A DNA stretch of 64,000 nt from an uncultured Gammaproteobacteria bacterium (GCA_947259705.1 CAMYNL010000002.1:9868-73867), one strand, 5' to 3'. Positions 31,818-62,464 are shown, counted from the stretch's first letter. Notes: a model not told the origin generated them from the sequence alone. Program-made: numbers and translations.

Positions 31818-31833
31818 AGCAATAATGGTGCCA
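31818..31833 (-). promoter_or_regulatory. sigma-54 promoter of the PQQ dehydrogenase operon
   Basis: The minus strand reads TGGCACCATTATTGCT, a perfect TGGCAC-N5-TTGC, about 113 nt upstream of the ATG at 31705. Confidence 0.7.
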
Positions 31834-32076
31834 GACGGAGGCTCGTGCTCTACCGGCGCGGCTCCAGCCCGCCCGGCTCCGCCGCCGACGGGCATCATTA
31901 CGCCGCAAGCCATTGTTTATACTTGATTAAAACTTCCAGGAGTAGATTTCCTTAGCGCGTTACTTTGATTTTCAGCATGCCGCGCCCCTGGTTTGCCGCC
32001 TGCCGTGACAGGCAGACCGGCTCGCCTTCTCCATGGACGCGACAACTGTATCAGATTTGTGACAGCTTTGCGGTCA

Positions 32077-33027
32077 TTACCAGGTGCCCAGGGCATCGAG
32101 CATCTGCTGCTTCTTGGTTTCGTAGTCCTCGTCGGTGATCAGGCCCTGTTCGCGCAACCGGTTCAGGGTGGTCAGGCCTTCCTCGAGTTCCTGCCAGCTG
32201 ATGCCCCGCCCGACCGGCGCCGGGGCGGCGGCGGGTGCGGCCGGTGCGGATGGGCGGATTGCTTCCTCACTACCCAGTATTTCCCTGAGTTCTTCACGCC
32301 TTCTGGCCATTTCTTCATTTTTGCGCGTTGTTGCCATCTGATCGAGAGCAGCCAGCGCTGTTCTTACATCAATTACCAGCCAGTCATCCCGTCGAGAACC
32401 ATTTATCTGCTTATTTTCTATTCCGACGACTTTCATGATGGTCTTATCAAATTCTTTAGATCTCTTTGTGCGACTACCGTGATCAAATTTGTAGTGGAGG
32501 ATTCCCACATTGGTGGGATCATAGGCCGCCTCAAAGGCTTCCTCCCTAAGCCGGTTGTAATCTCCAATGATGACATTAAGTTTATTGTCTTTGTTAAACG
32601 CCCGACCGGCCACAAAATACCGCGCGGGTTTAAGAATAACAAAACGATCGACGCTCTTTTGCAGGGCGAATATGATGTCCTGGTTCGGATTGGCGCTCCT
32701 GAGACCTTTGGCGAGATTTTGACCCAGCAGTTTCGCCTGCTCAGCGGTAAATACAGGTTTTAGTTCTTCCGCTGACTTGCTGTCATCCTTTCCTTGGATC
32801 TTCAACGCCTCCAGGACAGCGCTTATTTCCCGTGCGTTTAATGCGACAGGATGATCATTCCTGCCAAAGCTCGATTCATCCTGGTCGGCGTACTTGATAA
32901 ACTCATTAGCACTCGCTTTCCAAATTTCATCGTCATCGGCAGAAGCATGACCTGCAAAGACAATTGATGAAGAAAGTATTAGAAGTGAATAAAAAAAAGT
33001 GGCGAGTCGATTCTCTGACATGTTCAT
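32077..33027 (-). CDS. secreted hypothetical protein with C-terminal SHOCT domain
   Basis: 316 aa, AT-rich, with a signal peptide and an Ala/Pro linker. The C-terminal LTTLNRLREQGLITDEDYETKKQQMLDAL is a SHOCT-type motif. Confidence 0.65.
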   Translation of the reverse strand: MNMSENRLATFFYSLLILSSSIVFAGHASADDDEIWKASANEFIKYADQDESSFGRNDHPVALNAREISAVLEALKIQGKDDSKSAEELKPVFTAEQAKLLGQNLAKGLRSANPNQDIIFALQKSVDRFVILKPARYFVAGRAFNKDNKLNVIIGDYNRLREEAFEAAYDPTNVGILHYKFDHGSRTKRSKEFDKTIMKVVGIENKQINGSRRDDWLVIDVRTALAALDQMATTRKNEEMARRREELREILGSEEAIRPSAPAAPAAAPAPVGRGISWQELEEGLTTLNRLREQGLITDEDYETKKQQMLDALGTW

Positions 33028-34548
33028 TGTATAGAGGCTTAGTCAGCCATTATGGCGAAGTGGGCTACGATGAGTTCAGAGCGTAAAGTACCCGGCAATC
33101 TTACAACAAATATGCAGACGCCGACAGTGAGAGGATAACCCGCTAACTATGAATCCCGGCCGCAATGCTGTCCACCGCTTCGTACACCGTAATGTGAGCC
33201 GAATACAAGCCACGGGTGACGACCCTGGGCCCGATCTACGACCCCCAAGAAGCTAAACTCATCTAGATTCCCACAGAATATCCACGCGGGTGAAGCGCTC
33301 GACATGCGCATGCTACGTCGATTTTTTACTGCATGCCCTGCATTCGGCCCCAGCTGAATTCGGGGACGCATGTCTCACTGTCAAGCCCAGCCACAGGCAA
33401 GCGCAGAAGGGTAAAATGATCAGTTACCCACCCACACATTTATACACGAAACACCGCTCTAACGCTGGACTGACGGAGCAACACGCCACTCAATCCACGG
33501 ACGCCGCGCCGACCCTCTGATCTCACGCGGTCGCAGCGCGCCCATTCCGATGCCGAGCTGAACCCTGGCGTTGAACATCTCCTTCGAGCGCAATTTTTTG
33601 ATTTGGGCGCCTTCCTGTGCCAGCCTGTTTACTTACCGATCACTCGATACATCGTCCACGACTTTAATACTAATGATCATTTGGACAGATCCATAGCGCA
33701 CTAGCGGATCAGCTCGCGTAGTCGCGCGACGGCCCTGGCCGCCTCAAGGAGGCGAGAAACAAGCCTTCAATTGCCTGTATCGGGTTTTCAGGCGTTACTG
33801 ATTTCTGTTGTGGATGCGAAAAAGCTTTGCTTGCAATCGCGACTACTTGCCGGAGAATCGCGCACCTGCACGCGCCGATCTACACCGCCCGTCGCCCCAT
33901 CACCGTAATCGTGCGTTAAGCGTCGACGGCTAAACGCCATGTTCGGTATTTAGCTCCGCAGGTACCCCATCCCGTCGTTCTACATTCTCACCTCCCGGTT
34001 TGCTTTTTTCCCGTCTGGTGGGCCCGCTCAAGTCTCTGGCTGGAATCCCGTTTGCGCGATGAGGGTCGGTTCGCCCCCTGAGTAGGGTACAAACTCCGCT
34101 AACCGCAAAGCTCGGCCGGGCGCGTTTCATAATTCGCCGCGGTTCCGACCACCGGCCCAGGCCTTGTCCGGGTGACCAGACGGCTCCTGGTCTACTACCG
34201 CCCGTCGTCGGCCGTAACCGGCCCTATCGTTGATCATCCCTAAAATCAATGTTTTTGGTATGGATATTGCTTCAGTTAATTGTTGTGCTAGTGATACAAA
34301 GAGTGGCTAAGCGGGTTCTTGCCCATTGTGTAACGAGCCAACGCAGTAAAGGCGCGGTATTCGATTAGAGCCGAATACTTCGGAGCACAATGGTCCGCGA
34401 GGTCAGAGCAATTGGCAATGAGTTAATTGTTGCTTCTATGAGACGCTCTGTTGCATTATTGGCACACTGCTGTTTAGTCGCGCAAGTTCTTGGCTGGCGG
34501 ACAGCAGGCAATTGAAATTTTCCAATTTGCTTGTGGAGGGTAATTCGA

Positions 34549-37072: not shown

Positions 37073-39469
37073 CTAGAAATTCATGCGCAGCCCAATCCAG
37101 GCGCCGAAGGGCGCCCCGGGCCCCACGAAACGCCGGGCTCCGGCGAACGCGGGACCCAGCACCTCCTCGGGTTCACCGAACACCCCGAAGGTCTCGTACT
37201 CGGTGTCGAACAGGTTGTTGACCCGCGCGAACAACTCGGCCCGCGGGGTGAAGCGGTAGGTGGCGTTCAGATTGAAGATGGCGAAACCGTCCAGGGGGTC
37301 GGCGGTGTTGGATTCGTCGCCGCGGAAGAACTGGTCGCTCTGCGTCATCATGTCGGCGCCGAGGGTAAGCCGGTCGTTGATGTCCCAGGCGGCACTGAGG
37401 CGCAGCAGGTGCTCGGGGATGCCCGGGATGCGGTTACCGGGGCTCACCACCAGGGCTTCCGGTGCCGGCCGGTCGGGGTCTGCCGGATCGCGCAGCGGGT
37501 GGTTGGGGGAGTTGACCAGGAACGCGTCGCGGAACTCGGCGTTGATGTAGGTGTAATGGGCAGCGTAACGCACCGACCCGGCGCTGCCGGTGAGGCTGAG
37601 TTCCAGTCCCCGGCGGCGAGTGTCGCCTATGTTGTCGAAGAAACCCTGGCTGGTGCTGCTGCCGTCGCTGATGAACAGGATATCGTCCTTGTTGAGGGCG
37701 TCGAAAAGCGCCACGCTCCAGCGCAGCCCGCCGATGGTGTCACCCCGCACTCCCAGTTCGAAGGTGCGCGTCACCACCTGATCCAGCGGCGGATCGTCAA
37801 CGAACGCGTTCGGCAGGCGACAGGGATCGTCCGGGTTGGCGCAAGTCAGTTCCGCCGGCGTGGGCGCCCGGCTCGACTCGGCGTAGGACCCGAACACAGT
37901 TATTCGCTCACGCGGGAACCAACTGACGGCGATCGCCGGATTCAGTCGGTCGAAATTGTGATCACCCGTCAGGCTGCTGTCATCGTCATCGTCCGCCGCC
38001 CCGTCGTCAACATCGTCCGCAGCGCCATCTTCGTCGTCGAGCTGATCGCGCAGCTTGATGTCCGTGTAGTTGTAACGCGCCGACAACGTGAGATCGAGCT
38101 GGTCCGACAGGGCGAACGTATCGCTGATGAACAGACCGCCGTGAAATGTCTCGGTATCGACGTCGGTGACGGAGGCCTGGTCGATGAAACCACTGCCGAT
38201 GGTGCCGCGGTCCCCGGTGAGGCGGGCCAGCTCAGTCCGTTGCTGGAAATTGGCATCACCGTAGTCAATGCTGGCACCGTAGAGGATGCGATGATTGCGT
38301 GCGCCGATCACCACATCACTGAAGGCCTGCAGGGAGCCTCCCAGGGCGTACTGGCTGGTTTCGCTGCTGTTCTCGGTAGCCCCCTCAACGTCTTCGGTAG
38401 CGGCGACGGGGTTGCCGAACTGGTCGAAGACGAGCTCCTCACCGTCGTCCTCCTCCTCGCAGACCAGGCCCTCGTTCTCCGGAGATTCGCATTCCTCGTA
38501 ATCACTGCCGTCACCGTTGAAGGTCTCGGTGTCGGTACTACGGTAATAGGCGATGCCGGTGAGCGTCGTACGTTCACTGGCCACCCACGAGGAGCGCAGG
38601 TTGAACTGCGCCAGACGGTTCTCGGTGATGTCCGGATGGGTGAAGACCGCTTCCCGGCCCTCGACTGCCAGCAGCTCCTCGGGGGCGGCGCCGTTGCCGC
38701 GCAGCTCGGAATCGGTCAGGGTGAGGGCAAGGTCGGTGTCCACGTTCTCACCCTGAAAGCTGTACTTGCCGAAGGCCTGCCCGAGTTCGCTGTCCGAGAA
38801 GTCCCGCCAACCGTCTTCGGTGAAACCCTCGGCGGTGAGGTACCAGGCACGGTCGCCGCGGTCGGCACCGGTTTCCGCCTGCAGCGCGAAACGCCCGAAG
38901 CTGCCGCCGTACGCCTCGACCCGCGTACCCGGATGGGTGAACCCGCTCTTGCTCTGCATGGCGATGGCGCCGCCCAGCGTGTTCAGCCCGAACAGGGGGT
39001 TCGAGCCAGGAACGAGTTCGAGCCGCGATACGGCCGAGTCGGGGATGGTGTCCCAGTTCACCACGTCCCCGAACAGTTCGTTGCGCCGCACGCCGTCCAC
39101 GTACACGGAGATGCCCTGTGGGAACCCGAGCAGGGAAGAACTGCCGAAACCGCGATAGAAAAGCTCCGGCTGGTAGGGGTTGTTCTGGGCGTCGTTGATG
39201 TGCACCGAGCCGAGGTTCTGGCGCATGAAGTCGCTGAGGTTGAGCGCGCCCGAGGCCCTGAGGTCCTCGTCGGTGGCCGCCTGCACATTGCCGGGAAACC
39301 GTTGGGCCTCGGTGGTGGCCGCGCCGCCCGGGGCGGTGATGATGATCTCCTCCTCCACCGGCTGCGCCATGGACGGGGCCCCGACCGCAAGCCCGTTGAG
39401 CACGGCCAGCGACAGCAGCACCGGCGGCGGGGCGCAATGTCTACGAACACCCGCGATCACGAAACGCAC
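37073..39469 (-). CDS. TonB-dependent outer-membrane receptor with two hyper-acidic inserts
   Basis: 798 aa with signal peptide, a plug region (ITAPGG...NLSDFMRQNLGSVHIN...YRGFG) and the C-terminal beta-barrel ending ...WIGLRMNF. The acidic inserts are GDGSDYEECESPENEGLVCEEEDDGEE and DDEDGAADDVDDGAADDDDD. Confidence 0.9.
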   Translation of the reverse strand: MRFVIAGVRRHCAPPPVLLSLAVLNGLAVGAPSMAQPVEEEIIITAPGGAATTEAQRFPGNVQAATDEDLRASGALNLSDFMRQNLGSVHINDAQNNPYQPELFYRGFGSSSLLGFPQGISVYVDGVRRNELFGDVVNWDTIPDSAVSRLELVPGSNPLFGLNTLGGAIAMQSKSGFTHPGTRVEAYGGSFGRFALQAETGADRGDRAWYLTAEGFTEDGWRDFSDSELGQAFGKYSFQGENVDTDLALTLTDSELRGNGAAPEELLAVEGREAVFTHPDITENRLAQFNLRSSWVASERTTLTGIAYYRSTDTETFNGDGSDYEECESPENEGLVCEEEDDGEELVFDQFGNPVAATEDVEGATENSSETSQYALGGSLQAFSDVVIGARNHRILYGASIDYGDANFQQRTELARLTGDRGTIGSGFIDQASVTDVDTETFHGGLFISDTFALSDQLDLTLSARYNYTDIKLRDQLDDEDGAADDVDDGAADDDDDSSLTGDHNFDRLNPAIAVSWFPRERITVFGSYAESSRAPTPAELTCANPDDPCRLPNAFVDDPPLDQVVTRTFELGVRGDTIGGLRWSVALFDALNKDDILFISDGSSTSQGFFDNIGDTRRRGLELSLTGSAGSVRYAAHYTYINAEFRDAFLVNSPNHPLRDPADPDRPAPEALVVSPGNRIPGIPEHLLRLSAAWDINDRLTLGADMMTQSDQFFRGDESNTADPLDGFAIFNLNATYRFTPRAELFARVNNLFDTEYETFGVFGEPEEVLGPAFAGARRFVGPGAPFGAWIGLRMNF

Positions 39470-39591
39470 TACCTCCTCCTCACTGTTTGCTCGCCTCGAC
39501 AGCGCGCCGGCGGGTCGATGAGCGGCCTGCTTCGCCGCGGCCGGGCGCGAAGTCCGGCCGTCCGCACATCACGATGCCGGTGTTGTTCCGG

Positions 39592-39921
39592 TCAGCTGCC
39601 GGGCCCTGCCTCATCGGTGGCGGGCTGAAAGGGCCCGAGCGCGGCGTTCAGCGCGCCAATATACTCAATCAAGGCCGCATTCGCAGCCGCATCGGTCCGC
39701 GCCAGTTCGCCGATGGCCCGTTTGAAACGCGCCACCTGCTCGTCGTGATCACGCAGCAGCCGTGCCAGCAGGGCCTGCTCGGACTCGCTGGCACTGCCGT
39801 ATTTCTTGTATTTCGCCTCCAGGCCCTGCAGCACCAGAAAATGCCGTTGCCTGGTGGCATCCATGGCGTTGTAGGCCTGCCAGGCGTGGCGCGCGGCATC
39901 GGGTAGGGGTTGGTCGAACAT
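39592..39921 (-). CDS. hypothetical helical protein downstream of the aor operon
   Basis: 109 aa with no recognised motif. A GC-rich hairpin (39931-39961, 11-bp stem) separates it from the MoaD-like gene. Confidence 0.45.
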   Translation of the reverse strand: MFDQPLPDAARHAWQAYNAMDATRQRHFLVLQGLEAKYKKYGSASESEQALLARLLRDHDEQVARFKRAIGELARTDAAANAALIEYIGALNAALGPFQPATDEAGPGS

Positions 39922-39986
39922 GGGCGGGGCGGGGGCGGCGAATCCCGGACTCGCCGCCCCCTGTCAGTCGCTACGGCCGCGGGCCG

Positions 39987-40238
39987 CTAGCCGCCGGCCA
40001 CCGGCGGCCAGATGGCCAGCACGTCGTTTTCCGCCAGCACCGGCTGCTCGCGGCGCTCGGGCGCCACGTAGCCGCCGTTGATGAGCACCAGGTGCGCCAT
40101 CGGACGCGGCACCTTGAACATGTCGATCACCTGGTTCGGCGTGGCATCGTCCGGAACCTCCACCACGGTCGCGTTTTCACGCGACTCCGCCGGCAGCAGG
40201 TCCCCCAGGGTGGCGAAAAGCTTCAAAGTAATCTTCAT
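39987..40238 (-). CDS. MoaD/ThiS-family ubiquitin-like sulfur carrier (ends ...PPVAGG)
   Basis: MKITLKLFATLGDLLP...VLINGGYV...DVLAIWPPVAGG*. Its ATG overlaps the upstream TGA (ATGA). 83 aa. Confidence 0.8.
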   Translation of the reverse strand: MKITLKLFATLGDLLPAESRENATVVEVPDDATPNQVIDMFKVPRPMAHLVLINGGYVAPERREQPVLAENDVLAIWPPVAGG

Positions 40239-41497
40239 ACCACATAGGCATTGAAGCCCACGGCCTGGGTGCGCGCCAGGTACGCCTCCATGATGCGCGT
40301 CGGGTCCTGGATCAGCCGGTCTTTCCATTCGCCCAGCCGGGTACGGCTCTGGATCAGGCCGCGCAGCACGCCGACATTATCGGTGAGACCAAGACTGGAG
40401 GCGCCCACCAGCAAGTCATCCGCGAACTGCAGGTTGAGGTACTTGAACCCGCCCGGATCGTTCAGCTCGGTGCTTTCGCCGCCGTCCACCCCCATCCACA
40501 TGCCGAAGGAACTGGAGATCAGCCCCATGGTGTCGAGCACGTTCATGTTGACGCTGCCCTGGTGGACCTGGGACATACCCGCCATGTTGCTGGCGGCTAT
40601 GCGCCCGTGGTCCGCGGCGGTGGGCTGGATCGCCTGCACCGAGTACTCGCCGGTGGAGAAATCCTTGCCCTGGCACACGTCGCCGGCGGCATAGATGCCC
40701 GGCTGGCTGGTCTCAAGATGGGTATCCACGAGGATGCCGTGGTCGGTGTCGATGCCCGACCCCTCCAGAAAACCGATATTGGATCGCACGCCGGTGGCGG
40801 AGATGACCATGTCGGCGCCGGCGGTCTCAGCGTTGCTCAACACCACGTTCAGCGCGCCGCCGGAGGCCTCGATGGCCTCCACCTTGGTCGAGGTATGGAC
40901 GCGCACGCCCTTATGCTCGCACCAGGCCTTGATCAGTCCGCCCGAAGCCTCGTTCATCATCCGCGGCACCATGCGGTTCTCCATCTCCACGACGGTGAGG
41001 TCAACCCCGCTGCTGGCCAGCGCTTCAAGTATGATACAGCCGATGAACCCGGCCCCCATCAGCACCACCCGGTTGCCCGGCTGGCACAGGCTGACGATGT
41101 TTCGTGCGTCCTCCAGGGTCCAGCAGTTGTAGACGCCCTGTGACTCCACGCCCGGCACCGGCGGCGTCGCAGGACTGGAGCCGGTGGCGATGAGCAGACG
41201 GTCGAAGGCGACGGATCCACCACCGGCCAGGCTGAGTTGCTTGCCGGCGGCGTCCACCGTGGCGACGCGATCCTGTACCAGGTCTATGCCGAGCCCGGCA
41301 AAATGATCCGCGCCCTTGCGCAGATGGGTTCCCTTCTCGTCTATCTGCTTGATCAGGAAATAAGGGATGGCCATGCGCGAGTAGGGCGGTTCCGGCTCGT
41401 CACCGATAATACTTATCTTGGCATCGGCGTCGAGCCGCCGTATGTGCTCGGCAGCGACGACCCCCGCTGGTCCCGCACCAATGATTACGTGATGCAT
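40235..41497 (-). CDS. aorC: FAD/NAD(P)-dependent pyridine nucleotide-disulfide oxidoreductase family, AorC-like subunit
   Basis: 420 aa with MHHVIIGAGPAGVVAAEH (FAD GxGxxG) and a second Rossmann VVLMGAGFIGCI. Its position after the AOR gene matches the AorABC operons. Confidence 0.75.
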   Translation of the reverse strand: MHHVIIGAGPAGVVAAEHIRRLDADAKISIIGDEPEPPYSRMAIPYFLIKQIDEKGTHLRKGADHFAGLGIDLVQDRVATVDAAGKQLSLAGGGSVAFDRLLIATGSSPATPPVPGVESQGVYNCWTLEDARNIVSLCQPGNRVVLMGAGFIGCIILEALASSGVDLTVVEMENRMVPRMMNEASGGLIKAWCEHKGVRVHTSTKVEAIEASGGALNVVLSNAETAGADMVISATGVRSNIGFLEGSGIDTDHGILVDTHLETSQPGIYAAGDVCQGKDFSTGEYSVQAIQPTAADHGRIAASNMAGMSQVHQGSVNMNVLDTMGLISSSFGMWMGVDGGESTELNDPGGFKYLNLQFADDLLVGASSLGLTDNVGVLRGLIQSRTRLGEWKDRLIQDPTRIMEAYLARTQAVGFNAYVV

Positions 41498-41520
41498 CGT
41501 GCACTCTCCATATTCTTTGG

Positions 41521-41550
41521 TAAAAAACGGGTGGGTCCTGAGGACCCACC
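41521..41550 (-). terminator. intrinsic terminator/attenuator between aorB and aorC
   Basis: The minus strand reads GGTGGGTCC-tca-GGACCCACC followed by cgtttttt. It is followed by SD GGAGA and the aorC ATG. Confidence 0.6.
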
Positions 41551-41597
41551 ACTGTTCGGCAATCTACACAAACAGCCTTTTGTTTTAGAGGAGGAGA

Positions 41598-43448
41598 TCA
41601 CAAACCCAGTCGTTGTTTGGTCTCATCGGTGACGACGCCGTCCGCCGTCCAGCCGCGGATCTTGTAGTACTCCGGCAGCATCTTGCCGAGTTCGTTCACC
41701 TTGCCCTGGGCCGGACCGGCGTTCGCAGCTTCTTCCAGCAGGCGCTTGGGCAGCGTGTCATCCTTGCCCGTCACACCGGCCAGGCGGTTGAACTCGCGTT
41801 CCATGTTCCAGATCCGTTCCCCCAGTTCCACCAGCTTCTCGGTGGTCCACCCGCCCTCGCAGGCGGCGTCGAGCTGCGGCGCCACGTCGTCCAGGGTCCA
41901 GGCAAAGGAGGTGAACACGCACAGGCCGCTGGAATCGAAGGCGGCGGTGGCGTCCTGGAAGGCCTTGACCAGCTCCGCCTTGCCCTCGGTGGCCAGCGGA
42001 TCGGTCTTTTCCGGGATGCCGAGGATCTCGGAGGCGACGGTGTAGCCGCGCAGGTGGCAGGCGCCGCGGTTGGAGGTGGCGTAGGCCAACCCCATGCCCT
42101 GGATGCCGCGCGGATCGTAGGCCGGAAATTCCTGGCTCTTCACGGTCATGGAGAGCTCGGGATGACCATACTTCTCGCACATCCTCCTGGAGCCCAGCGC
42201 CAGGTCGCGGCCGAAACCCTCACCCGCGGCCACCATCTCGACGCCATGCACCAGCGCCTCGGCGGAACCGAAATTGTAGGCCATGCCACCGGTGTGCTCA
42301 TTGGTGATCACGCCCATCTCGTAGAGCTCCATCGCCGCGGCGACGGTAGCGCCGAAGGAGATCGGATCGATGCCGTCCTCGTTGCACACGAAGTTGGCAT
42401 AGGTGATCGCATCGAGGTCATCAACGCCGTTGTCCGAACCCAGCGACCAGGCCGCCTCGTATTCCAGCCCGCCGGAGGCCTTCCAGTACTCGGGCTTGTT
42501 CTTGATGGTGAAGTGGCCCTGGTCGACGGTGGAGATGCGCCCGCAGGCGATGGTGCAGCCGAAACATGCCGCGTTGGTGGTCAGGTTGGGCTGACCATCG
42601 CTCGCGCGTGGCTCGTGCATCGCCTCGCCGGAGATCTTATGGGCGCCCTCGAACTGAGTCTCGCGCATGTTGCGGGTAGGCATCGCCCCCGACTCGTTTA
42701 TGACGTTCATCAACACCTGGGTGCCGTACTTGGGCAGGCCCTCGCCGGTCACGGCATTCTCGCGCAGCACCCGCTTGCCCTCCTCGGTGGCCTGCAGGAA
42801 ACGCATCGGGTCCTTGATATTGCCGACGCCCTTAGTGCCTCGAGCCACCACGGCCTTGAGGTTCTTCGACGCCATCACGGTGCCGACCCCGGAGCGGCCG
42901 GCGGCGCGGTGCAGGTCATTGACCACCGCGGAATAGAGGCAGCCGTTCTCCGCCGAGCGGCCCACCAGGGCGATCTTGATCAGGGCGTCCTGGTGCTTCT
43001 TGTGCAGGATCTCGTCGGCCTCCCACACCGATTTGCCCCAGATGTCACCGGCATCCATCAATTGGACGCTGTCGTCATGCACATACAGGTATACGGGCTT
43101 CGGCGACTTGCCCTCGAAGATGATCATGTCCCAGCCGGCGGCCTTCAGCTCGGCGCCGAAATAACCGCCGGAGTTGGAGCAGGCCACGGTGCCGGTGAGG
43201 GGGCTCTTGGTCACCACCGAGTACCGGCCGCCGGTGGAGGCCATGGTGCCGGTGAGGGGACCGGTGGTGACGATGAACTTGTTGTCCGGCCCCAGCGCGT
43301 CACAGGTGGGATCGACCTCCTCCACCAGGTACTTGGTCGCCAGCCCGCGCTGACCCAGGTACTGCTGGGCCCATTCCATGTTGAGCGGCTCTTCGGTGAT
43401 CTTGCCCTCGGTGAGGTTCACCCGCATCACTTTGTTGGTCCATGCCAT
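41598..43448 (-). CDS. aorB: tungsten-type aldehyde:ferredoxin oxidoreductase family protein (AorB-like)
   Basis: 616 aa from the ATG at 43448 (SD GAGGAGG). MAWTNKVMRVNLTEGKITEE...QYLGQRGLATKYL and the overall length are typical of the AOR family. Confidence 0.9.
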   Translation of the reverse strand: MAWTNKVMRVNLTEGKITEEPLNMEWAQQYLGQRGLATKYLVEEVDPTCDALGPDNKFIVTTGPLTGTMASTGGRYSVVTKSPLTGTVACSNSGGYFGAELKAAGWDMIIFEGKSPKPVYLYVHDDSVQLMDAGDIWGKSVWEADEILHKKHQDALIKIALVGRSAENGCLYSAVVNDLHRAAGRSGVGTVMASKNLKAVVARGTKGVGNIKDPMRFLQATEEGKRVLRENAVTGEGLPKYGTQVLMNVINESGAMPTRNMRETQFEGAHKISGEAMHEPRASDGQPNLTTNAACFGCTIACGRISTVDQGHFTIKNKPEYWKASGGLEYEAAWSLGSDNGVDDLDAITYANFVCNEDGIDPISFGATVAAAMELYEMGVITNEHTGGMAYNFGSAEALVHGVEMVAAGEGFGRDLALGSRRMCEKYGHPELSMTVKSQEFPAYDPRGIQGMGLAYATSNRGACHLRGYTVASEILGIPEKTDPLATEGKAELVKAFQDATAAFDSSGLCVFTSFAWTLDDVAPQLDAACEGGWTTEKLVELGERIWNMEREFNRLAGVTGKDDTLPKRLLEEAANAGPAQGKVNELGKMLPEYYKIRGWTADGVVTDETKQRLGL

Positions 43449-43461
43449 GTCGTGTACCTCC

Positions 43462-44079: not shown

Positions 44080-44095
44080 TGCAACTTGCGTGCCA
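44080..44095 (-). promoter_or_regulatory. sigma-54 promoter of the aor operon
   Basis: The minus strand reads TGGCACGCAAGTTGCA, a perfect TGGCACG-N4-TTGCA, about 100 nt upstream of the aorA ATG. Confidence 0.75.
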
Positions 44096-44179
44096 TGGAT
44101 GCGCGGCGCCTGTCTCGCGCCTAAACAGGCGGCCGGGGGCCTGGTCAGCCTCAGATTTGTTGCATACGCGCCTGGCGAT

Positions 44180-50827: not shown

Positions 50828-50909
50828 CCGGTGACCGGGTGCCGCGCGGAAACTGCTGCCGGCCGTCGCCGGAGCCCGCCCTGCCGGGGCGGGATCCCAG
50901 CCCAGACGT

Positions 50910-51653
50910 GTGATCTCGCAGGCCGCTGACGTGCCGCCCCGAGCCATCTCAGGACCCGCTTTCCACCTCGGCTGCGGGCTGGTCTTGGCAGTCACCATGC
51001 TGAGCGGGTGCCAGCAAACGGACCGCGGCTATTTCCCCCTGCACGACGGAGCGCGGTGGGAGTACCGCTTGACGAGTACGTGGAGCGACGGCGAGGAGAC
51101 CACCCGCTACGCGGTGACCAACCTCCGGTCAACCATGCTGGATGGACGACCCGCCACCATACGCCGCGACAGCCGGGGCACCGATTACTACATCACCCAG
51201 GATCGGCAGGGTATCGCCCGGGTGGCGAAGCGCACCGTGGTCGAGTTCGAGCCGCGACCTGAACCGGAACCGCGCTACGTCATCAAGTTTCCCCCTGTTG
51301 TCGGCACGGAGTGGCGGGTGAGCAGCCATCCCTTCCTGCTGAAGCGGCTGCTTCCCTTCAAGGAACGCTTCAATCGTGATTTCAGCGTGGTCATGCAGTA
51401 CAGCATCGTCAGCACCGACGCGGCGGTCAGCGTACCGGCCGGACAGTTTACCGGCTGCCTGCTGCTGCAGGGCGAGGGTACCCTGCGCATCTACGCTGAC
51501 GCGGTGGCAGGGATTTCCGAGGTGCCGGTTACCTCCCGTGAGTGGTACGCACCCGGCGTGGGGCTGGTCAAACTTGAGCGCCGGGAGGAGCTGAACACCA
51601 CCCAGATCATCGGCGGCTCGGCACGGCTTGAACTGCTCCGTCACCGCCGCTGA
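50910..51653 (+). CDS. hypothetical lipoprotein (cassette gene 4)
   Basis: Lipobox AVTMLSGCQQ. GTG start at 50910 or 50931. I recognise no family for the mature part of about 215 aa. Confidence 0.6.
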   Translation: MISQAADVPPRAISGPAFHLGCGLVLAVTMLSGCQQTDRGYFPLHDGARWEYRLTSTWSDGEETTRYAVTNLRSTMLDGRPATIRRDSRGTDYYITQDRQGIARVAKRTVVEFEPRPEPEPRYVIKFPPVVGTEWRVSSHPFLLKRLLPFKERFNRDFSVVMQYSIVSTDAAVSVPAGQFTGCLLLQGEGTLRIYADAVAGISEVPVTSREWYAPGVGLVKLERREELNTTQIIGGSARLELLRHRR

Positions 51654-51744
51654 ACTGGTTCGCCGCATCCAGCATGGTGGCTGTATACAACCATTTCGTG
51701 ATCCGGTGCCGGGCAATCCGCGCGCCCGTCGCCGCCATGAGACC

Positions 51745-51760
51745 TGGCATGGTTCTTGCT
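51745..51760 (+). promoter_or_regulatory. sigma-54 promoter upstream of pqqA
   Basis: TGGCATGGTTCTTGCT has a single mismatch to TGGCAC-N5-TTGC with correct spacing. It lies about 104 nt before the pqqA ATG. Confidence 0.65.
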
Positions 51761-51863
51761 TTCCATACAGAGACTTCAGTGCAAAGTGCGGCCGACCGTT
51801 GGCTTCGGGTAGGCCGTCAAATAATCAAGCAGCAATCTGTCAACTTGAATGGAGTAGCGAGAT

Positions 51864-51938
51864 ATGATTTGGTCAACACCTGAGTTCAAAGATCTGCGGT
51901 TGGGCTTCGAGATCAACCTGTACATCAACAACCGCTAA
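51864..51938 (+). CDS. pqqA: PQQ precursor peptide PqqA (24 aa, absent from the ORF track)
   Basis: [24 protein letters not shown] contains the conserved E-x3-Y (EINLY) and the DLRLG context. SD GGAG lies 9 nt upstream. Confidence 0.9.
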
Positions 51939-51954
51939 GCAGTCCGGCATGCGG

Positions 51955-51976
51955 CGCGGACCGGTTCCGGTCCGCG
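51955..51976 (+). terminator. stem-loop immediately after pqqA (attenuator or stabiliser)
   Basis: cgcggaccgg-tt-ccggtccgcg is a 10-bp perfect inverted repeat, 17 nt after the pqqA stop. There is no U-run. Confidence 0.5.
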
Positions 51977-52053
51977 TCCATTGCTCCCCCAGCCCTCCCG
52001 TGTACCGGGGGTCCCTGTATCAACCGCGCGAGTTCCGCGCCCGGTTCCCGACC

Positions 52054-53205
52054 GTGTCCCAGAACGTCATCGATCCGCAGGCCCTAGGCAAGCCCCTGTG
52101 GCTGCTGGCGGAGTTGACCTACCGCTGCCCGCTACAGTGTCCCTACTGCTCCAATCCGCTTGACCTGGCGCGCTACCGCGACGAGCTTTCCACTGCGGAC
52201 TGGGTGCGGGTGTTTACCGAGGCGAGGGCAATGGGAGCCACCCAGCTCGGCTTCTCCGGCGGCGAACCGCTGGTCCGCAAGGACCTCACGGAACTGGTTG
52301 CCGCGGCCCGCGGCCTCGGTTATTACACCAACCTGATCACCTCAGGCGTAGGCATGAACGAGTCGCGCATCCGCTCGCTGAAGGAAGCCGGCCTGGATCA
52401 CATCCAGATCAGCTTCCAGGCCAGCAGCGAGGAACTCAACAACTATCTGGGCGGCAGCGACAGTTTCCGGCACAAGATGGAAATGGCCCGCCTGGTCAAG
52501 GCCTACGAGTACCCGATGGTGCTGAACGTGGTGCTGCACCGGCAGAACATCGATTACATGCGCGAGATCCTGGACATGGCCGTGATGCTGGAAGCCGACT
52601 ACGTGGAGCTGGCCAACACCCAGTACTACGGCTGGGCCTACGTCAACCGGGACCAGCTGCTGCCCCAGCGTGAACAGATCGAGCAGGGCGAGCGCATTGC
52701 CCACGAGTACCAGGACCGGCTGCGCGGACAGATGAAGATCTACTACGTGGTGCCGGACTATTTCGAGGGCCGCCCGAAAGCGTGCATGAGTGGCTGGGGC
52801 TCCATATTCCTCACCATTGCCCCGGACGGCACGGCCCTGCCCTGCCATGCCGCCGGCCAGCTGCCGGGCCTCGGCTTCCCCAACGTCCGCGAACACACTA
52901 TCGACTGGATCTGGAACGACTCTCCCGACTTCAATCTGTTCCGGGGCGAGGACTGGATGCGCGAACCCTGTCGCTCGTGCCCGGAACGCTCCAGGGACTT
53001 CGGGGGCTGCCGCTGCCAGGCCTACATGCTGACCGGTGACCCCCGCAACACCGATCCGGCGTGCAGTCTCTCGCCCCAGCACGAGAAGATCATCCAGGCC
53101 GTCGACCGCGCCGGTGGTGCGCCGGAAGAAAAGCCGCTGGTATTCCGCAACCTGCGCAACGCCCGGACACTGAGCGGGTCGCCGCCCGCCCCGCCCACCG
53201 ACTGA
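52054..53205 (+). CDS. pqqE: PQQ biosynthesis radical-SAM enzyme PqqE
   Basis: [24 protein letters not shown] carries the CxxxCxxC motif, plus the SPASM-type C-terminal Cys-rich region. The GTG at 52054 is preferred (383 aa). The ORF-track start at 51949 is also possible. Confidence 0.9.
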
Positions 53206-53255
53206 TCACGCCGCCCGCTGCCGGCGCGGCCCGTTCGGGCCGTATAATCCGGGAC

Positions 53256-54701
53256 ATGCCCGGTGACGCGAAATCCCTCTCCCGCCTGTTGCTGAGCTAC
53301 GAGCTGGCGTTCACCCTGCTGATCGTGGTGACAGCCAGCGTGGGCGGCGTCTGGGTGTATTTCTGGCAGCAGAACTCCCGGGCGTCACTGGAGATAAACC
53401 GCCTTTCCTATGATGCGCAGCAGCTGCGCGCCGACCTGTACCGCCAGATCCGCGAGGTCTACGTGGCCAGCCGTGCCCAGGACCCGCGGGTCCTCGACAA
53501 GTACTGGACCCACATCTATGACATCGACCGCCGGTTCCATGCGCTGGAACAGGTGGTGACCGGCGGCGAGGCCTCCGCGATCCGCGGCATGCGCAACGCC
53601 TACGAAATGCTGCAGGCGCAATTGAACCGGGTACTGTCGCAGTCAGTCAGCGAGAGCCGGCGTGAGCGCATCATTCAACCTGCCTACGAGTTCTGGCTGC
53701 AGGGAGAATTCGAATCCGAGTTCGCCCGCCTGAACCAGTTGATCGCCGAGCGCCGCGCCCTGCTGGACCGGCGCCTGGCGCGCTGGAACCGCGTCGCCCC
53801 CTGGCTGCTGCCGGTGCCGATCCTGCTCGCGGTGTGGTTGCTGGGACGCTCGCACCGGCGGCTGCGGCGGGAGTTTTCGCAGCCCATGGCCGAACTGAAA
53901 AGCGGCGCAGAGCAGATCAGCGAGGGCAGGCTGGAGCACCGCGTCAATGAGCAAGGGGCCGAGGAAGTGGCCCTGCTGGCGCGGACGATCAATCAGATGG
54001 CGGCGGAACTCGCAGCCAGCCGCGACGAACTGGTGGAGAAGGAGCGACAAGCGGCGCTGGGCGCGCTGGTGCCCGTTGTCGCCCATAACATACGCAACCC
54101 GCTGGCCAGCATCAGGGCCTCGGCGCAGATCCTCGATCCGGCTGATCGCGCCGAGCTGGACGAGACCCGGCGCGGCATCATCGATACAGTGGACCGGTTG
54201 GAACGCTGGGTCAGCGCACTGCTTTCCTACCTGCATCCGCAGACACCCAGGCGCAGCGAGGCGCAGCTCGAGGAGATCATCAATGGGGCGCTGGCACCCC
54301 TGCGGGCCAGGGCACGCGACAAGGACGTCCAGCTACACCACCATGCGGCCCCACCGGGGCGTAGCCTGCTGATAGACAGCGCGTTGATGGAGCAGGCGAT
54401 CCACGGCTTGGTGCTCAACGCGCTGGAGGCGGCTCCCGACGGCAGCACCATCGATATCAGGCGCCAGGAGCAGGGACGGGGCGCGGTGATACTGATCGAG
54501 GATGAGGGCACAGGGATGCCCTTCGACCCCAGCCCCGGCGATTTCTCTCCGGGCCCGACCACCAAACCGTCGGGTACCGGCCTGGGGATACCTTTCGCCC
54601 ACAAGGTGATACATGCCCATGGTGGTACACTGGAATTCGAAGGCAGAAGGAAACACGGAACGCGGGTCCGCGTCACCATCCCCTACCAAGGAAACACATG
54701 A
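53256..54701 (+). CDS. sensor histidine kinase (2 TM, HAMP, HisKA, HATPase_c)
   Basis: ATG at 53256. HAMP segment ...EEVALLARTINQMAAEL, H-box VVAHNIRNPLASI and G-boxes EDEGTGM / GTGLGIPF. Confidence 0.85.
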   Translation: MPGDAKSLSRLLLSYELAFTLLIVVTASVGGVWVYFWQQNSRASLEINRLSYDAQQLRADLYRQIREVYVASRAQDPRVLDKYWTHIYDIDRRFHALEQVVTGGEASAIRGMRNAYEMLQAQLNRVLSQSVSESRRERIIQPAYEFWLQGEFESEFARLNQLIAERRALLDRRLARWNRVAPWLLPVPILLAVWLLGRSHRRLRREFSQPMAELKSGAEQISEGRLEHRVNEQGAEEVALLARTINQMAAELAASRDELVEKERQAALGALVPVVAHNIRNPLASIRASAQILDPADRAELDETRRGIIDTVDRLERWVSALLSYLHPQTPRRSEAQLEEIINGALAPLRARARDKDVQLHHHAAPPGRSLLIDSALMEQAIHGLVLNALEAAPDGSTIDIRRQEQGRGAVILIEDEGTGMPFDPSPGDFSPGPTTKPSGTGLGIPFAHKVIHAHGGTLEFEGRRKHGTRVRVTIPYQGNT

Positions 54702-56089
54702 GCGGTCCCGAGAGCACGATCCGTATTGCGCTGGTGGAAGACGAGGCATTGTTCGCCAAGGCGGTGGAGCGGACCCTGAATCGGCATGGTTACGAAACCA
54801 CGGTCTTCGGCTCACTGTCTGCGGCCGCGGAGGCGGTGCCCGCGCTGCAGCCGGACCTGATGCTGCTGGACATGCGTCTCCCCGACGGCTCGGGCCTGGA
54901 TTACCTGGAGCGCCTGCGCGGCGACAAGTCCGCGCAGGCGGTGGTGGTAATGACCGCGTTCGGCGACCTTGAGAACGCCGTCGCTGCGATGAAGCTCGGG
55001 GCCCTGGATTACCTCAAGAAGCCCATCGACATGGACGACCTGGTGCATGCCGTGGACAAGGCACTGGAACAGGTGCAGCTAACGCGCAGACTCGGCTATT
55101 CGCGGCAGCGCGAAGCGCGGGGCAACCGGGAGAACACGTTGCTGGGAGAAAACCCGCAGATCGTGGAGCTGCGGGAGGAGATCGCCCACATCGGCGCGAT
55201 CAGCACCCGCACCGACGAACCCCCTCCAACGGTGCTGATCCTGGCTGAGACAGGCTGCGGCAAGGACCTGGTGGCCAGGGCGCTGCACGATGCCAGCGCC
55301 CGCCGCGACCGCCCGTTCGTGCAGGTCGATTGCGCCGCCCTCCCCGACGAGCTTATCGAGTCGGAATTGTTCGGGCACGAGAAAGGGGCCTTCACCAGTG
55401 CCCATAGACAACGCAGCGGGCTTATCGAGGCGGCCGAAGACGGTACCGTGTTTCTTGACGAGATCGGTGAACTGCCGCTGGACCTGCAGGCGAAACTGCT
55501 CGCGGTGCTGGAACGACGCAAGGTGCGCGCGGTCGGCAGTACGCGGGAACGGGACACCCAGGCCTGGTTCATCGCCGCCACCAACCGGGATCTCAATGCG
55601 ATGGTGGCCAACGGGGCTTTTCGCTCCGACCTCTACTTTCGCCTCAACATCGTCACCCTCAGCATACCGCCCCTGCGCGAGCGCGGGGGCGACGTGCAGC
55701 TGCTGGCCCGACATTTCGCCGCCCAGGCCACGCGTCGTTACGGCGTCACGGGCATAGAACTGAAACCGGAGATTATCGACCAACTGGACCGATATGCGTG
55801 GCCGGGCAACGTGCGCGAACTCGCCCACGTCATGGAACGCGCCGTGCTGTTGAGCCGGGACGGCAATGTCACCGCCGCTCAACTCGCCCTGGCCCCGCCA
55901 CGGGATACCGCAAGTGCAGAGGCTGCCCTGGACAACCTGACGCTGGAGGAGGCGGAACTGCGGCTGATCCGCCATGCCCTGCAGAGAACCCGCGGTAACG
56001 TGTCGGAGGCGGCGCGGCGCCTCGGTGTTACCCGGATGACGATGCGCCACCGGATCAAGAAGTACGGCCTGGACGACCGCGACAGCTGA
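54698..56089 (+). CDS. sigma-54-dependent response regulator (NtrC family)
   Basis: REC domain (LMLLDMRLPDGSG), AAA+ domain (AETGCGKD, GAFTSA, ELGELPL) and C-terminal HTH NVSEAARRLGVTRMTMRHRIKKYG. Overlaps the kinase stop. Confidence 0.9.
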   Translation: MSGPESTIRIALVEDEALFAKAVERTLNRHGYETTVFGSLSAAAEAVPALQPDLMLLDMRLPDGSGLDYLERLRGDKSAQAVVVMTAFGDLENAVAAMKLGALDYLKKPIDMDDLVHAVDKALEQVQLTRRLGYSRQREARGNRENTLLGENPQIVELREEIAHIGAISTRTDEPPPTVLILAETGCGKDLVARALHDASARRDRPFVQVDCAALPDELIESELFGHEKGAFTSAHRQRSGLIEAAEDGTVFLDEIGELPLDLQAKLLAVLERRKVRAVGSTRERDTQAWFIAATNRDLNAMVANGAFRSDLYFRLNIVTLSIPPLRERGGDVQLLARHFAAQATRRYGVTGIELKPEIIDQLDRYAWPGNVRELAHVMERAVLLSRDGNVTAAQLALAPPRDTASAEAALDNLTLEEAELRLIRHALQRTRGNVSEAARRLGVTRMTMRHRIKKYGLDDRDS

Positions 56090-60666: not shown

Positions 60667-61415
60667 GGCCGCCAGCGCGATATACGCGCGTCGATGGGCC
60701 GCATCAATATCGCTTCCACGACCAGCACTATGGTAGCGAAGGCCAGCGTGTAGGCCAGGATGCTGGTGATGTCGAAGAACTGGAAGAAGGTCCCGAGCTG
60801 AAAGCCGATCCCGTCGCTGCGGCCGAGTAGCTCCACCACCAGCACGATCTTCCAGATCAGGGCGAGGCCGGAGCGCGCTGCCGCCATCAGATAGGGATAC
60901 AGCTGGGGAACGTATACCTTGGTGAGTTTGCGGGTCCACGGGACGCGGAAGGCATCGGCGACCTCGAGCAGCTTGCGGTCAACGGCCCGTGCCCCCTCAC
61001 GGACGGTGACGATGACGGTGGGTATCTTGTTGATCGCGACGGCGGTTACAGCCGCCGCTTCCACCAGCCCGAACCAGATGTAACAAAGAATAATGGTCAC
61101 CAGCGCCGGTATGTTCAGGCCCAGGACCAGGACACCGTCCAGCAGGGTGTCGAGCATCGGATAGCGTCCCATGAGGATACCGACGGCGGTCCCAACCACC
61201 ATGGCGATGGCGAAGCTCAACACGACCCGCCACAGTGTTATCGCCAGGCTGGACAGCAACTCACCGTCGATCAGGTGACCCCACAGGCTGGCGACGACAC
61301 TGACAGGCGTGGGCAAGGTGGGGATGGCCAGCAGCTGCGCGGCGACTTGCCACAGCGCGATGAAACCCAGCAGTGACAGTGCGCGCAGCCAGGGCGCAGC
61401 CTTCACCGAGTTCAC
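60663..61415 (-). CDS. ABC transporter permease, NitT/TauT type
   Basis: About 250 aa from the GTG at 61415, which overlaps the binding-protein TGA. BPD-transport-like core with the EAA-type loop ...EVADAFRVPWTRKLTKVYVPQLYPYL. Confidence 0.8.
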   Translation of the reverse strand: MNSVKAAPWLRALSLLGFIALWQVAAQLLAIPTLPTPVSVVASLWGHLIDGELLSSLAITLWRVVLSFAIAMVVGTAVGILMGRYPMLDTLLDGVLVLGLNIPALVTIILCYIWFGLVEAAAVTAVAINKIPTVIVTVREGARAVDRKLLEVADAFRVPWTRKLTKVYVPQLYPYLMAAARSGLALIWKIVLVVELLGRSDGIGFQLGTFFQFFDITSILAYTLAFATIVLVVEAILMRPIDARISRWRP

Positions 61416-62395
61416 GGCAGCAGGGATTGCGGGGCCGTCTCCATCCAGAAGGTGCCGGCCGTGAGCTCGTTGCTGCGGCCCACCAGGTCCCGCCCACCTT
61501 CCTTCGCGAGCAGCGAAAACACCTGTCGCGCGGCGGTCAGTTCCGGTTCGCCGAACTGGCGCGGAATGCCTAGACGGTAGCTGTCGCGAAGCGCCGCCAG
61601 AGTCTTGTCGTCCTCCGCCTTGGTGAGAGGGCGGATGCGCTGCCACTCGTCTTCGTTGTCGTCGAGGATGGCCTTGGCGGCGTAGGAAGATCGCAGGAAC
61701 CCGACCAGGGCGTCCCGGTTCTGTGCCGCCCATTGTTCTTCAAACACCCAACCCAGCAGCGGGACGCTGCCGCTGACCCCCAGCCCCGCCATGATGTCCG
61801 TCACCTGTATCAGCGGACGCATCCCCGCGGCCTCCAGACGGGCGCCATAGTGCCAGTAGTTGAGCACCGCGGGCAGGTCGCCCTGCAGCATCAGCTGGTT
61901 GAGCAGGGGCGGCGCGGCGAAGGTCGGCTCCGCCGCCTGCTTGAGGTCCAGTCCCAAGGTCTTCTTGGAGTAGGCCCGCAACAGCAGCCAGCTCTTGTCC
62001 ACCGGCCCGCCCGCGATACCGAGTTTCTTGCCTTCGAGGTCAGCCAGCTTGATGATGCCCGCGTCCGGGCGCACGAACAGGGAACCGACGGTCAGCGAGT
62101 AAGGGAAAAAAACGAACTTCCTGCCCTCCGCACGCTGCCGGCTCACCCAGACCCAGTCAGTAACTATGATATCCACGGCATCACCCTGCAGCGCCACGCT
62201 GGTCGCATTCTTGGAGCCCAGCGGCACCACCGTCAGCGAGATACCGTTGTCAGCGCCCAGCTTGTGATGCTGAACGACGTCGAGCTCCCAGTTGACCGTG
62301 CCGAATTTCAACACGCCCACCCGGACCGGGGCGGTGTCGGCGTTCACAAAACCGGCAAACGCCGACAGTATGCAGGCCAGAAGAAGTCGTTTCAT
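61412..62395 (-). CDS. ABC transporter substrate-binding protein, NMT1/SsuA-like
   Basis: 327 aa with signal peptide MKRLLLACILSAFAGFVNA. It shows NMT1/SsuA-type features and heads the operon. Confidence 0.75.
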   Translation of the reverse strand: MKRLLLACILSAFAGFVNADTAPVRVGVLKFGTVNWELDVVQHHKLGADNGISLTVVPLGSKNATSVALQGDAVDIIVTDWVWVSRQRAEGRKFVFFPYSLTVGSLFVRPDAGIIKLADLEGKKLGIAGGPVDKSWLLLRAYSKKTLGLDLKQAAEPTFAAPPLLNQLMLQGDLPAVLNYWHYGARLEAAGMRPLIQVTDIMAGLGVSGSVPLLGWVFEEQWAAQNRDALVGFLRSSYAAKAILDDNEDEWQRIRPLTKAEDDKTLAALRDSYRLGIPRQFGEPELTAARQVFSLLAKEGGRDLVGRSNELTAGTFWMETAPQSLLP

Positions 62396-62448
62396 ATATT
62401 TCCCAATTTGCGGCCCGTGGCCGTTATCAAAGCATTGCGACGGATTCT

Positions 62449-62464
62449 AGCAATGCGGTCGCCA
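62449..62464 (-). promoter_or_regulatory. candidate sigma-54 promoter of the long ABC operon
   Basis: The minus strand reads TGGCGACCGCATTGCT. GG/GC spacing is correct, with two mismatches in the -24 hexamer. It lies about 55 nt upstream of the ATG at 62395. Confidence 0.4.

Follow-up and report, generated by a model that had tools for sequence, protein, structure and literature searches.

Putative sigma-54 promoters ahead of alcohol dehydrogenase, aor and pqq units in an uncultured gammaproteobacterium, with two candidate activator circuits

We analysed a stretch of 64,000 nucleotides from an uncultured Gammaproteobacteria bacterium (GCA_947259705.1, CAMYNL010000002.1:9868-73867; hereafter the window, numbered from its first letter), which belongs to a JGI metagenome contig of 146 kb. 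Between 24.9 and 56.1 kb it carries genes for a pyrroloquinoline quinone (PQQ)-dependent alcohol dehydrogenase (ADH), a tungsten-type AorABC system, PQQ synthesis and two activators of sigma-54 (RpoN) RNA polymerase. A first-pass annotation had proposed that six sigma-54 promoters wire these modules, together with an ABC operon, into one RpoN-dependent regulon. The gene map was built from Pfam, NCBIfam and a choice of open reading frames (ORFs) based on third-position GC content (GC3), and the earlier gene calls (PQQ-ADH, AorABC, pqqBCD, pqqA, pqqE, two enhancer-binding proteins (EBPs), a histidine kinase and a ped-type ABC set) were upheld by Pfam and NCBIfam. The units and the predicted sigma-54 -24/-12 elements ahead of them are as follows.

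31818-31833, minus strand: P_adh, element TGGCACCATTATTGCT, perfect consensus, 17.8 bits, 114 nt ahead of the ADH start codon at 31705
29960-31705, minus strand: PQQ-dependent ADH of the methanol/ethanol family (Pfam; TIGR03075, 794 bits against a cut-off of 480)
31705 to about 24873, minus strand: same-strand run of ADH, cytochrome c (29313-29738), SBP3 (28421-29284), an ORF, a SoxYZ fusion, metallo-beta-lactamase/SoxH, rhodanese and Sel1
34256-34271, plus strand: P_porin, element TGGTATGGATATTGCT, 17.2 bits
34549-35775, plus strand: porin gene, separated from P_porin by a 277-nt leader (34272-34548)
44080-44095, minus strand: P_aor, element TGGCACGCAAGTTGCA, perfect consensus, 17.6 bits, 101 nt ahead of the aorA start codon at 43980
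37073-43980, minus strand: aorA, aorB, aorC, thiS (aorD-like), a 109-aa ORF and a TonB-dependent receptor gene (Pfam: Fer4, AFOR_N/C, Pyr_redox_2, ThiS, Plug/TonB barrel)
44831-44846, plus strand: P_ebp, element TGGCACGGTGTTTGCT, 19.4 bits, the top score of the window, its end 22 or 40 nt short of the EBP1 start codon, depending on whether this is 44867 or 44885
44885-46912, plus strand: EBP1, an AcoR/MimR-type EBP with the architecture MimR_N-GAF-(PAS)-AAA+-HTH_8
46947-46962, plus strand: P_pqqB, element TGGTATCCATTTTGCA, 15.9 bits, 41 nt ahead of the pqqB start codon at 47002
47002-51653, plus strand: pqqB, pqqC, pqqD, a MotA/ExbB-like gene and three uncharacterised ORFs, all closely spaced or overlapping (Pfam; JGI gene calls)
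51745-51760, plus strand: P_pqqA, element TGGCATGGTTCTTGCT, 18.2 bits, 106 nt ahead of the pqqA start codon at 51865
51865-56089, plus strand: pqqA (51865-51939, encoding a 24-residue peptide), pqqE (52000-53205), histidine kinase (53256-54701) and NtrC-type regulator (54698-56089)

A site was counted as a sigma-54 promoter when GG and GC stood exactly 10 nt apart within the extended consensus TGGCAC-N5-TTGCW, and sites were ranked with an approximate position weight matrix. Perfect copies of TGGCAC-N5-TTGC were found three times in the window, at 31819-31833(-), 44081-44095(-) and 44831-44845(+), against 0.27 expected; 2 of 100 dinucleotide shuffles had at least three. The relaxed pattern TGGYAY-N5-TTGC matched six times against 0.63 expected, a number attained in none of 100 shuffles. 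In the matrix scan of the window six strong sites scored 15.9-19.4 bits, and a shuffled window gave about 13 sites of at least 10 bits. The runner-up reached only 13.6 bits (8233-8248); it falls within the codons for the signal peptide of a DUF3604 protein and was set aside as a chance match. All six strong sites are intergenic and aimed at the next gene, 22-279 nt ahead of its start codon, and the sequences of P_pqqA and P_pqqB fit common Y-variants of the -24 box. The coordinates and sequences of the six sites first proposed are correct throughout. Five of them (those of the PQQ-ADH, aorA, the AcoR-like gene, pqqB and pqqA) are strong, and the porin site, equally strong, had been overlooked.

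The sixth proposed site lies upstream of an ABC run.

62449-62464, minus strand: TGGCGACCGCATTGCT, upstream of the NitT/TauT-like and ped-type ABC run
62395 to 56100, minus strand: NitT/TauT-like importer followed by four ped-type ABC/beta-propeller genes

We rejected it as a sigma-54 promoter. It keeps the GG and GC but is off at two core positions, scores 8.5 bits and ranks 44th among GG-containing positions, and no counterpart was found above the NMT1-type homologues of five related loci (L038, L040, L041, L056 and L091). Because the site stands at chance level by score and rank and is not conserved, the ABC operon is left outside the sigma-54 set. A scan of 62300-62700 for sigma-70 promoters and terminators returned nothing. 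The ped-type accessory genes themselves all score above their cut-offs: TIGR03861 (PedC permease, 372.6 against 241), TIGR03863 (binding protein, 430.4 against 413.6), TIGR03864 (ATPase, 328.5 against 302) and TIGR03866 (beta-propeller, 342.3 against 287).

The strong sites are shared with relatives. A scan of a species collection with the AcoR-like protein returned two loci, and the closest genome was an Arenicellales metagenome-assembled genome (MAG) with an activator 58% identical, whose loci L001 and L092 are syntenic with the window. This MAG has sigma-54 sites at aorA, pqqB, pqqA, the ADH gene and the porin gene; a second MAG, GCA_975902805.1 (L005 and L087), has them at aorA, pqqB and pqqA. 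Five of the six strong sites are retained at orthologous positions, the proteins being only 55-75% identical and the flanks diverged. The counterpart of P_adh stands in the same arrangement in Arenicellales locus L092 at 8469-8484(-) (18.9 bits, TGGCATGCAAATTGCA). The site upstream of aorA is kept in L001 (16.2 bits, TGGCATACAAGTTGCA), L005 (18.1 bits) and L011 (15.7 bits), that of pqqB in L001 (TGGCACCGTTCTTGCT) and L087 (TGGCATTCTTCTTGCA), and that of pqqA in L001 (18.1 bits, TGGCACAAATTCTGCA), L087 (18.4 bits) and L088 (16.2 bits). At the porin gene, TGGTAT-N5-TTGC and a leader of 250-290 nt are retained in L091, L092 and L093, whose porins are 70-72% identical; the Arenicellales sequence is TGGTATGGAAATTGCT, and a Thiodiazotropha MAG (L094) has a variant 85 nt upstream. 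Gene order behind the promoters is also shared, that of the ADH run with L092, that of the aor run with L005, and pqqA-pqqE-kinase-regulator with L001 and L087.

A wider sample was obtained by scanning metagenomes with the ADH, which gave 80 loci at 67-87% identity, 72 of them usable. In 26 of the 72 the ADH gene has a sigma-54 site of at least 12 bits in the 450 nt ahead of it, where about 2.4 such loci would be expected (background 0.034 per search interval), typically 35-135 nt from the start codon. An AcoR-like EBP was present in the fetched flank of 10 of the 26 loci with such a site and of 1 of the 46 without (Fisher p = 8e-5). In this sole case (L045) a 17.4-bit site stands further upstream, ahead of an intervening gene. 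Loci lacking the motif mostly show the classical order ABC - cytochrome c - binding protein - ADH, with no activator. In L021 and L022, ADH-aorABC, cytochrome c and beta-propeller/ABC operons are each preceded by strong sigma-54 sites, and in L011 the ADH gene and aorA diverge from a pair of them. Across 947 kb of related loci, just 2 of 47 sites of at least 15 bits fall inside recognised coding homologues.

Spacing and strand, from which its extent is judged, suggest that the ADH run is one operon. The aor run downstream of P_aor would likewise form a single transcript, as would the run from pqqB to 51653, whose stop and start codons overlap.

That two EBPs are encoded in the window was borne out by PF00158 and HTH_8 matches and a Walker A motif in both the AcoR-like protein and the NtrC-type regulator. 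EBP1 (PF00158 1.2e-64, HTH_8 3.3e-12, GAF 3.7e-12, with the lid domain also present) carries the sigma-54 contact loop GAFTGA at residue 413 and the Walker A sequence GETGTGKE, and PF26965 MimR_N is recorded for an identical protein as a precomputed match. No NCBIfam equivalog reached its cut-off against EBP1, the best being PrdR (306 bits against 795) and DhaR (296 against 551): it is a member of the AcoR/MimR family and not an orthologue of a characterised regulator. Since its N-terminus aligns with those of relatives from the start at 44867 or 44885, P_ebp lies upstream of the coding sequence. The NtrC-type regulator (REC-Sigma54_activat-HTH_8; PF00158 1.1e-60, HTH_8 5.4e-14) follows pqqE (Radical_SAM/SPASM) and the kinase (HAMP-HisKA-HATPase), with whose gene it shares 4 nt (54698-54701); its scores stay below the equivalog cut-offs of AtoC (375 bits against 714), NtrC (372 against 558.6) and ZraR (322 against 760).

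Candidate binding sites for both activators were found in the intergenic sequence upstream of the promoters.

32047-32064, minus strand: candidate upstream activating sequence for the AcoR-like activator, TGTCAC-N6-GATACA, directly past the SHOCT stop codon and 214-231 nt upstream of the P_adh -24 box
32077-33027, minus strand: SHOCT protein gene
44179-44196: TGTCCCA-ATAA-TGGGACA, a perfect palindrome 84-101 nt above the P_aor -24 box; candidate enhancer of the AcoR-like activator
44209-44649, minus strand: JAB-domain gene, just upstream of the aor promoter
51678-51693: TGGCTG-TATA-CAACCA, a palindrome 52 nt above the P_pqqA -24 box; candidate enhancer of the NtrC-type regulator

Among 14 upstream regions associated with EBPs, the top 7-mers were TGTCACG/CGTGACA, present in 8 (0.39 expected), and TGTGTCA/TGACACA, present in 6 (0.31 expected). 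A further TGTCAC half-site lies at 32005-32010, and the equivalent position past the SHOCT gene holds TGTCAC-N9-GTGACA in the Arenicellales MAG (L092) and TGTCGC-N6-GTGACA in L007. At aorA, L005, L001 and L006 have related TGTGTCA...GTGACA elements, about as far upstream. Between 27.8 and 62.4 kb the intergenic sequence has TGTCAC/GTGACA hexamers nowhere but above P_adh and, in a single copy, past the end of the porin gene; no candidate enhancer repeat was found for P_ebp. Because TGTCAC-type repeats sit upstream of both P_adh and P_aor and their half-sites are enriched in EBP-associated regions, the AcoR-like protein most likely serves these two promoters through them.

The second palindrome, TGGYTG-N4-CARCCA, occurs four times in 1.14 Mb (window plus related loci), where 0.1 would be expected. 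Three of the four copies lie 52-104 nt upstream of pqqA promoters by kinase-regulator genes (in the window, at L001 16704 and at L088 5437), and a copy with one mismatch stands beside the kinase-regulator pair in L087, L089 and L090. This recurrence upstream of pqqA promoters beside kinase-regulator genes argues that the NtrC-type regulator probably activates pqqA-pqqE and its own genes.

The fourth copy of this palindrome, TGGTTGAGAGCAACCA, stands at 31224-31239 inside the ADH coding sequence, where it encodes a conserved LVALNQ. Homologues with LVALNQ use other codons and have no palindrome. The intragenic copy is specific to the window; it may be an enhancer or a coincidence.

On these grounds we read 24.9-56.1 kb as a ped-like alcohol/aldehyde oxidation island whose main units would start from sigma-54 promoters, with P_adh, P_aor and P_pqqA under two activator sub-circuits and P_porin, P_pqqB and P_ebp assigned to neither; we put the probability of this at about three in four. 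RpoN-RNA polymerase would wait in closed complex at the six sites, each requiring an AAA+ activator to open. The AcoR/MimR-type protein, with its GAF sensor, would bind the TGTCAC-type inverted repeats upstream of P_aor and P_adh and, on sensing a small molecule that is probably an alcohol, an aldehyde or a ketone, would induce alcohol and aldehyde oxidation jointly; it may also amplify itself from P_ebp in this organism. The kinase/NtrC-type pair would bind TGGYTG-N4-CAACCA 52 bp above P_pqqA and drive pqqA-pqqE together with its own genes, a positive loop that would set the supply of PQQ precursor.

Several points weigh against this reading. The frequencies of the weight matrix only approximate the published consensus, so that its scores serve for ranking only, and rpoN is absent from the window, its presence being implied only by the two activators. 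Assignment of the enhancers is circumstantial: TGTCNC-N6-GNKACA matches in the 64 kb only at 32047-32064 and 44179-44196, the two sites from which the pattern was derived, and the spacing from TGTC to GACA varies among relatives (8, 10 or 13 bp). We found no shared enhancer above P_pqqB in three genomes, and the four compared at P_porin had neither a 7- or 8-mer nor a repeat in common upstream. The NtrC-type regulator has the loop GAFTSA instead of GAFTGA, and its competence is assumed; within its family (proteins P0122-P0160) the loop reads GAFT-x-A, the fifth position, usually an invariant glycine, being S, G, D, H or N, with GAYTGA in some of the proteins. P_ebp, proposed earlier as the promoter of the AcoR-like gene, tops the motif scores, but it has no counterpart above the orthologous activators of L001, L005 and L006 (56-62% identical); in L095, a strain 99.9% identical, it is the same, which is uninformative on constraint, and it has no other comparative support. 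Finally, additional sigma-70 promoters or distant regulators may act at these units.

The strongest competitor is a single integrated RpoN regulon, close to what was first proposed, that would take in the ABC operon, contain an AcoR-like gene regulating itself and have both activators act across all modules. The modules do cluster, the two EBPs are the only regulators found, P_ebp scores highest of all, the palindrome within the ADH gene could in principle couple the circuits, and the ped-type beta-propeller/ABC operon of L021 does have a sigma-54 site. However, neither the ABC site, which is at chance level, nor P_ebp is conserved; the two enhancer types stand at different promoters; and the intragenic palindrome is window-specific and encodes a conserved LVALNQ. 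We therefore regard such a regulon as unlikely. What remains of the original claim is that the ADH, aor and both pqq units have strong conserved elements; the candidate enhancers point to at least two sub-circuits.

Less probable still is that the sigma-54 promoters are real while the local EBPs are not their main activators, either regulators encoded elsewhere (for example LuxR-type PedR/ExaE-like or MxaY/PedS2-like systems) or sigma-70 promoters being dominant. The syntenic Arenicellales locus does have a pair missing from the window: at L092 14633-16608, a LapD_MoxY_N histidine kinase gene and one for a LuxR-type regulator (PedS2/PedR2- or MxaY-like) separate the TonB receptor gene from the aor and cofactor genes. 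Boxes of the TTGTTG-N8-GATAC type in the porin leader resemble the sites of another protein, and P_porin and P_pqqB are the promoters for which no enhancer was found. Against this, no LuxR/GerE regulator was detected among the approximately 60 window ORFs scanned with Pfam, the two sigma-54 activators being the only transcription regulators found; the presence of an EBP tracks the ADH promoter motif, and the enhancer-like repeats are positionally conserved. Since the Arenicellales relative encodes both, sigma-54 and LuxR-type control can coexist in this lineage. That a short GC-rich pattern without promoter function has simply recurred by chance is hardly credible, for although three perfect matches do arise in some shuffles and one 13.6-bit match lies in a coding region, the six relaxed matches do not, all six strong sites are intergenic and oriented, and five are conserved.

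The preferred reading, two sub-circuits on sigma-54 promoters, leaves several features of the island to be described. The pqq cluster (46999-53205) is split and reordered, with pqqBCD, four unrelated genes, and pqqA immediately before pqqE, each part having its own sigma-54 promoter. The same split is present in L001 and L087, and L088 has two tandem pqqA copies. The four intervening genes (48952-51653) comprise that of the MotA/ExbB-like protein of 249 aa and three ORFs (202, 170 and 247 aa) that match no NCBIfam model. This MotA/ExbB-like module accompanies an AcoR-like activator or a kinase-regulator pair in L001, L005, L006, L020, L089 and L090, whether or not pqq genes are present, and may supply energy to the TonB-dependent receptor that the aor operon encodes. 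In that operon a ThiS/MoaD-like gene follows aorC (39987-40238), and in L001 a ThiF/MoeB-like ORF stands beside the JAB/JAMM gene, which suggests that the JAB/JAMM and ThiS/MoaD-like genes are a sulfur-carrier maturation set for the tungsten cofactor.

The ADH carries WDYDG, with an Asp two residues past the catalytic Asp, which we take to be the hallmark of lanthanide-dependent enzymes of the PedH/XoxF type. The last gene of the aor operon encodes a TonB-dependent receptor (37073-39469), joined in the syntenic Arenicellales locus by a PepSY protein, and in this the operon resembles lanthanide-response genes reported for Methylobacillus flagellatus (PMC9988556). The genes that follow the ADH form a soxYZ island (24873-29738: cytochrome c, binding protein, ORF, SoxY-SoxZ fusion, SoxH-like metallo-beta-lactamase, rhodanese, Sel1) that is kept in the Arenicellales MAG and is the same as the soxYZ-S2 island beside PQQ-ADH in lucinid clam symbionts (PMC11237559).

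The porin leader contains two TTGTTG-N8-GA(T/G)AC boxes (34279-34300 and 34426-34447) and the sequence TGTTGCATTATTGGCAC, and all of these are retained in relatives with 72% identical porins (L091 7712-8000; L092 9737-10000). As a structured RNA the leader is unsupported, with an RNAalifold energy of just -4.96 kcal/mol and 3 covarying pairs; because no consensus structure emerges, these elements resemble protein-binding sites more than an RNA element. An Rfam scan of the whole window found no RNA family. Between the SHOCT gene and P_porin lies the following stretch.

33028-34255: ORF-poor stretch of about 1.2 kb, with no ORF of at least 80 aa and a GC content of 0.53-0.55 against 0.64 overall

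It had no Rfam match and is not conserved, the SHOCT start codon of the Arenicellales MAG being 15 nt from the porin -24 box; GC3 is low throughout 32-37 kb.

The principle of RpoN, an AAA+ activator and an enhancer is textbook, and the advance lies in the targets and the wiring. AcoR and sigma-54 control acetoin catabolism in Cupriavidus necator (acoXABC) and Bacillus subtilis (acoABCL), and MimR controls mimABCD in mycobacteria. EBP1 shares with these regulators the MimR_N, GAF, AAA+ and Fis-type HTH domains, a gene that neighbours a catabolic operon with a -24/-12 promoter and is often transcribed away from it, and an effector that is likely a small oxygenated carbon compound. It differs in its predicted targets, which are operons for a periplasmic PQQ-ADH and for tungsten-type AorABC and not for acetoin dehydrogenase or a monooxygenase. 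The glnALG and zraSR operons provide precedents for positive autoregulation through an operon containing the regulator's own genes. Like NtrBC, AtoSC and ZraSR, the second system pairs a HAMP-HisKA-HATPase kinase with a REC-AAA+-HTH regulator, has a palindromic candidate enhancer above a -24/-12 promoter, and includes the regulator's genes in the operon. Unlike them, it would act on pqqA-pqqE, has the GAFTSA loop and an unclassified sensor domain, and scores far below the equivalog cut-offs.

The Pseudomonas ped/exa clusters resemble the window in their PQQ-ADH, cytochrome c, periplasmic binding protein, ABC-2 transporter with beta-propeller (four TIGR0386x genes) and nearby pqq genes. They are controlled by LuxR-type regulators (PedR1/ErbR-AgmR, PedS2/PedR2, ExaDE; PMC12997753, PMC6115532), and a 2026 review of the cluster, which attributes control to such regulators, names sigma-54 only for CbrB. 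The contrast drawn in the first-pass annotation stands: among the ORFs scanned the window has no LuxR-type gene and its ADH, aor and pqq units have -24/-12 elements, whereas for Pseudomonas that review describes LuxR-type control and no sigma-54 promoters in the cluster. The nearest precedent found is M. flagellatus, where xoxF and the gene of a TonB-dependent receptor have the sigma-54-dependent regulators Mfla_0343 and Mfla_1254 beside them, and where the sigma-54 promoter is a software prediction only (PMC9988556). Alike are a PQQ dehydrogenase with a predicted sigma-54 promoter, an adjoining sigma-54 activator and a TonB-dependent receptor nearby, the regulators being likened by description; that case differs in concerning the methanol dehydrogenase and lanthanide switch of a methylotroph. 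In Aromatoleum aromaticum EbN1, aorA (poly-ferredoxin), aorB (AFOR_N/C), aorC (FAD) and a MoaD/ThiS-like gene follow one another as they do here, and the paper on this AorABC describes no regulator or promoter (PMC6365974). In the window, by contrast, there is a conserved sigma-54 promoter, the run extends into the TonB-dependent receptor, and the system is paired with a PQQ-ADH. In the literature, the M. flagellatus prediction was the only case of sigma-54 control of pqqA, aorABC or PQQ-ADH that we found; most subscription journals were outside reach, and absence is no proof.

PQQ-ADH clusters (ped/exa/xox) matter for the oxidation of solvents and volatiles, for lanthanide biology and as a source of biosensor parts, and their regulation is known almost solely from Pseudomonas and a few methylotrophs. 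Sigma-54/EBP wiring in about one third of the sampled close metagenomic ADH homologues offers a testable alternative scheme, with two new predicted activator-enhancer pairs, TGTCAC-type repeats with the AcoR-like protein and TGGYTG-N4-CAACCA with the NtrC-type regulator. As sigma-54 promoters are tightly off or on, those described here could serve as alcohol- or aldehyde-responsive parts.

A broader picture can be offered only tentatively, and we hold it to be considerably less secure than the reading of the island itself. In many uncultured marine and sediment Gammaproteobacteria (Arenicellales and Thiodiazotropha relatives), an AcoR/MimR activator might co-induce a lanthanide-type PQQ-ADH and tungsten AorABC, while a sigma-54 two-component system with an unclassified periplasmic sensor, encoded in an autoregulated pqqA-pqqE-kinase-regulator operon, would set the supply of PQQ. 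Through the ADH palindrome and the MotA/ExbB-like module the two circuits would be coupled hierarchically, and the whole would replace the LuxR-type scheme of Pseudomonas. On this picture pqqA and aorABC would each have their first sigma-54 promoter on record. The wiring proposed for the window would tie PQQ-ADH, the tungsten Aor enzyme and PQQ synthesis into one co-evolving functional unit.

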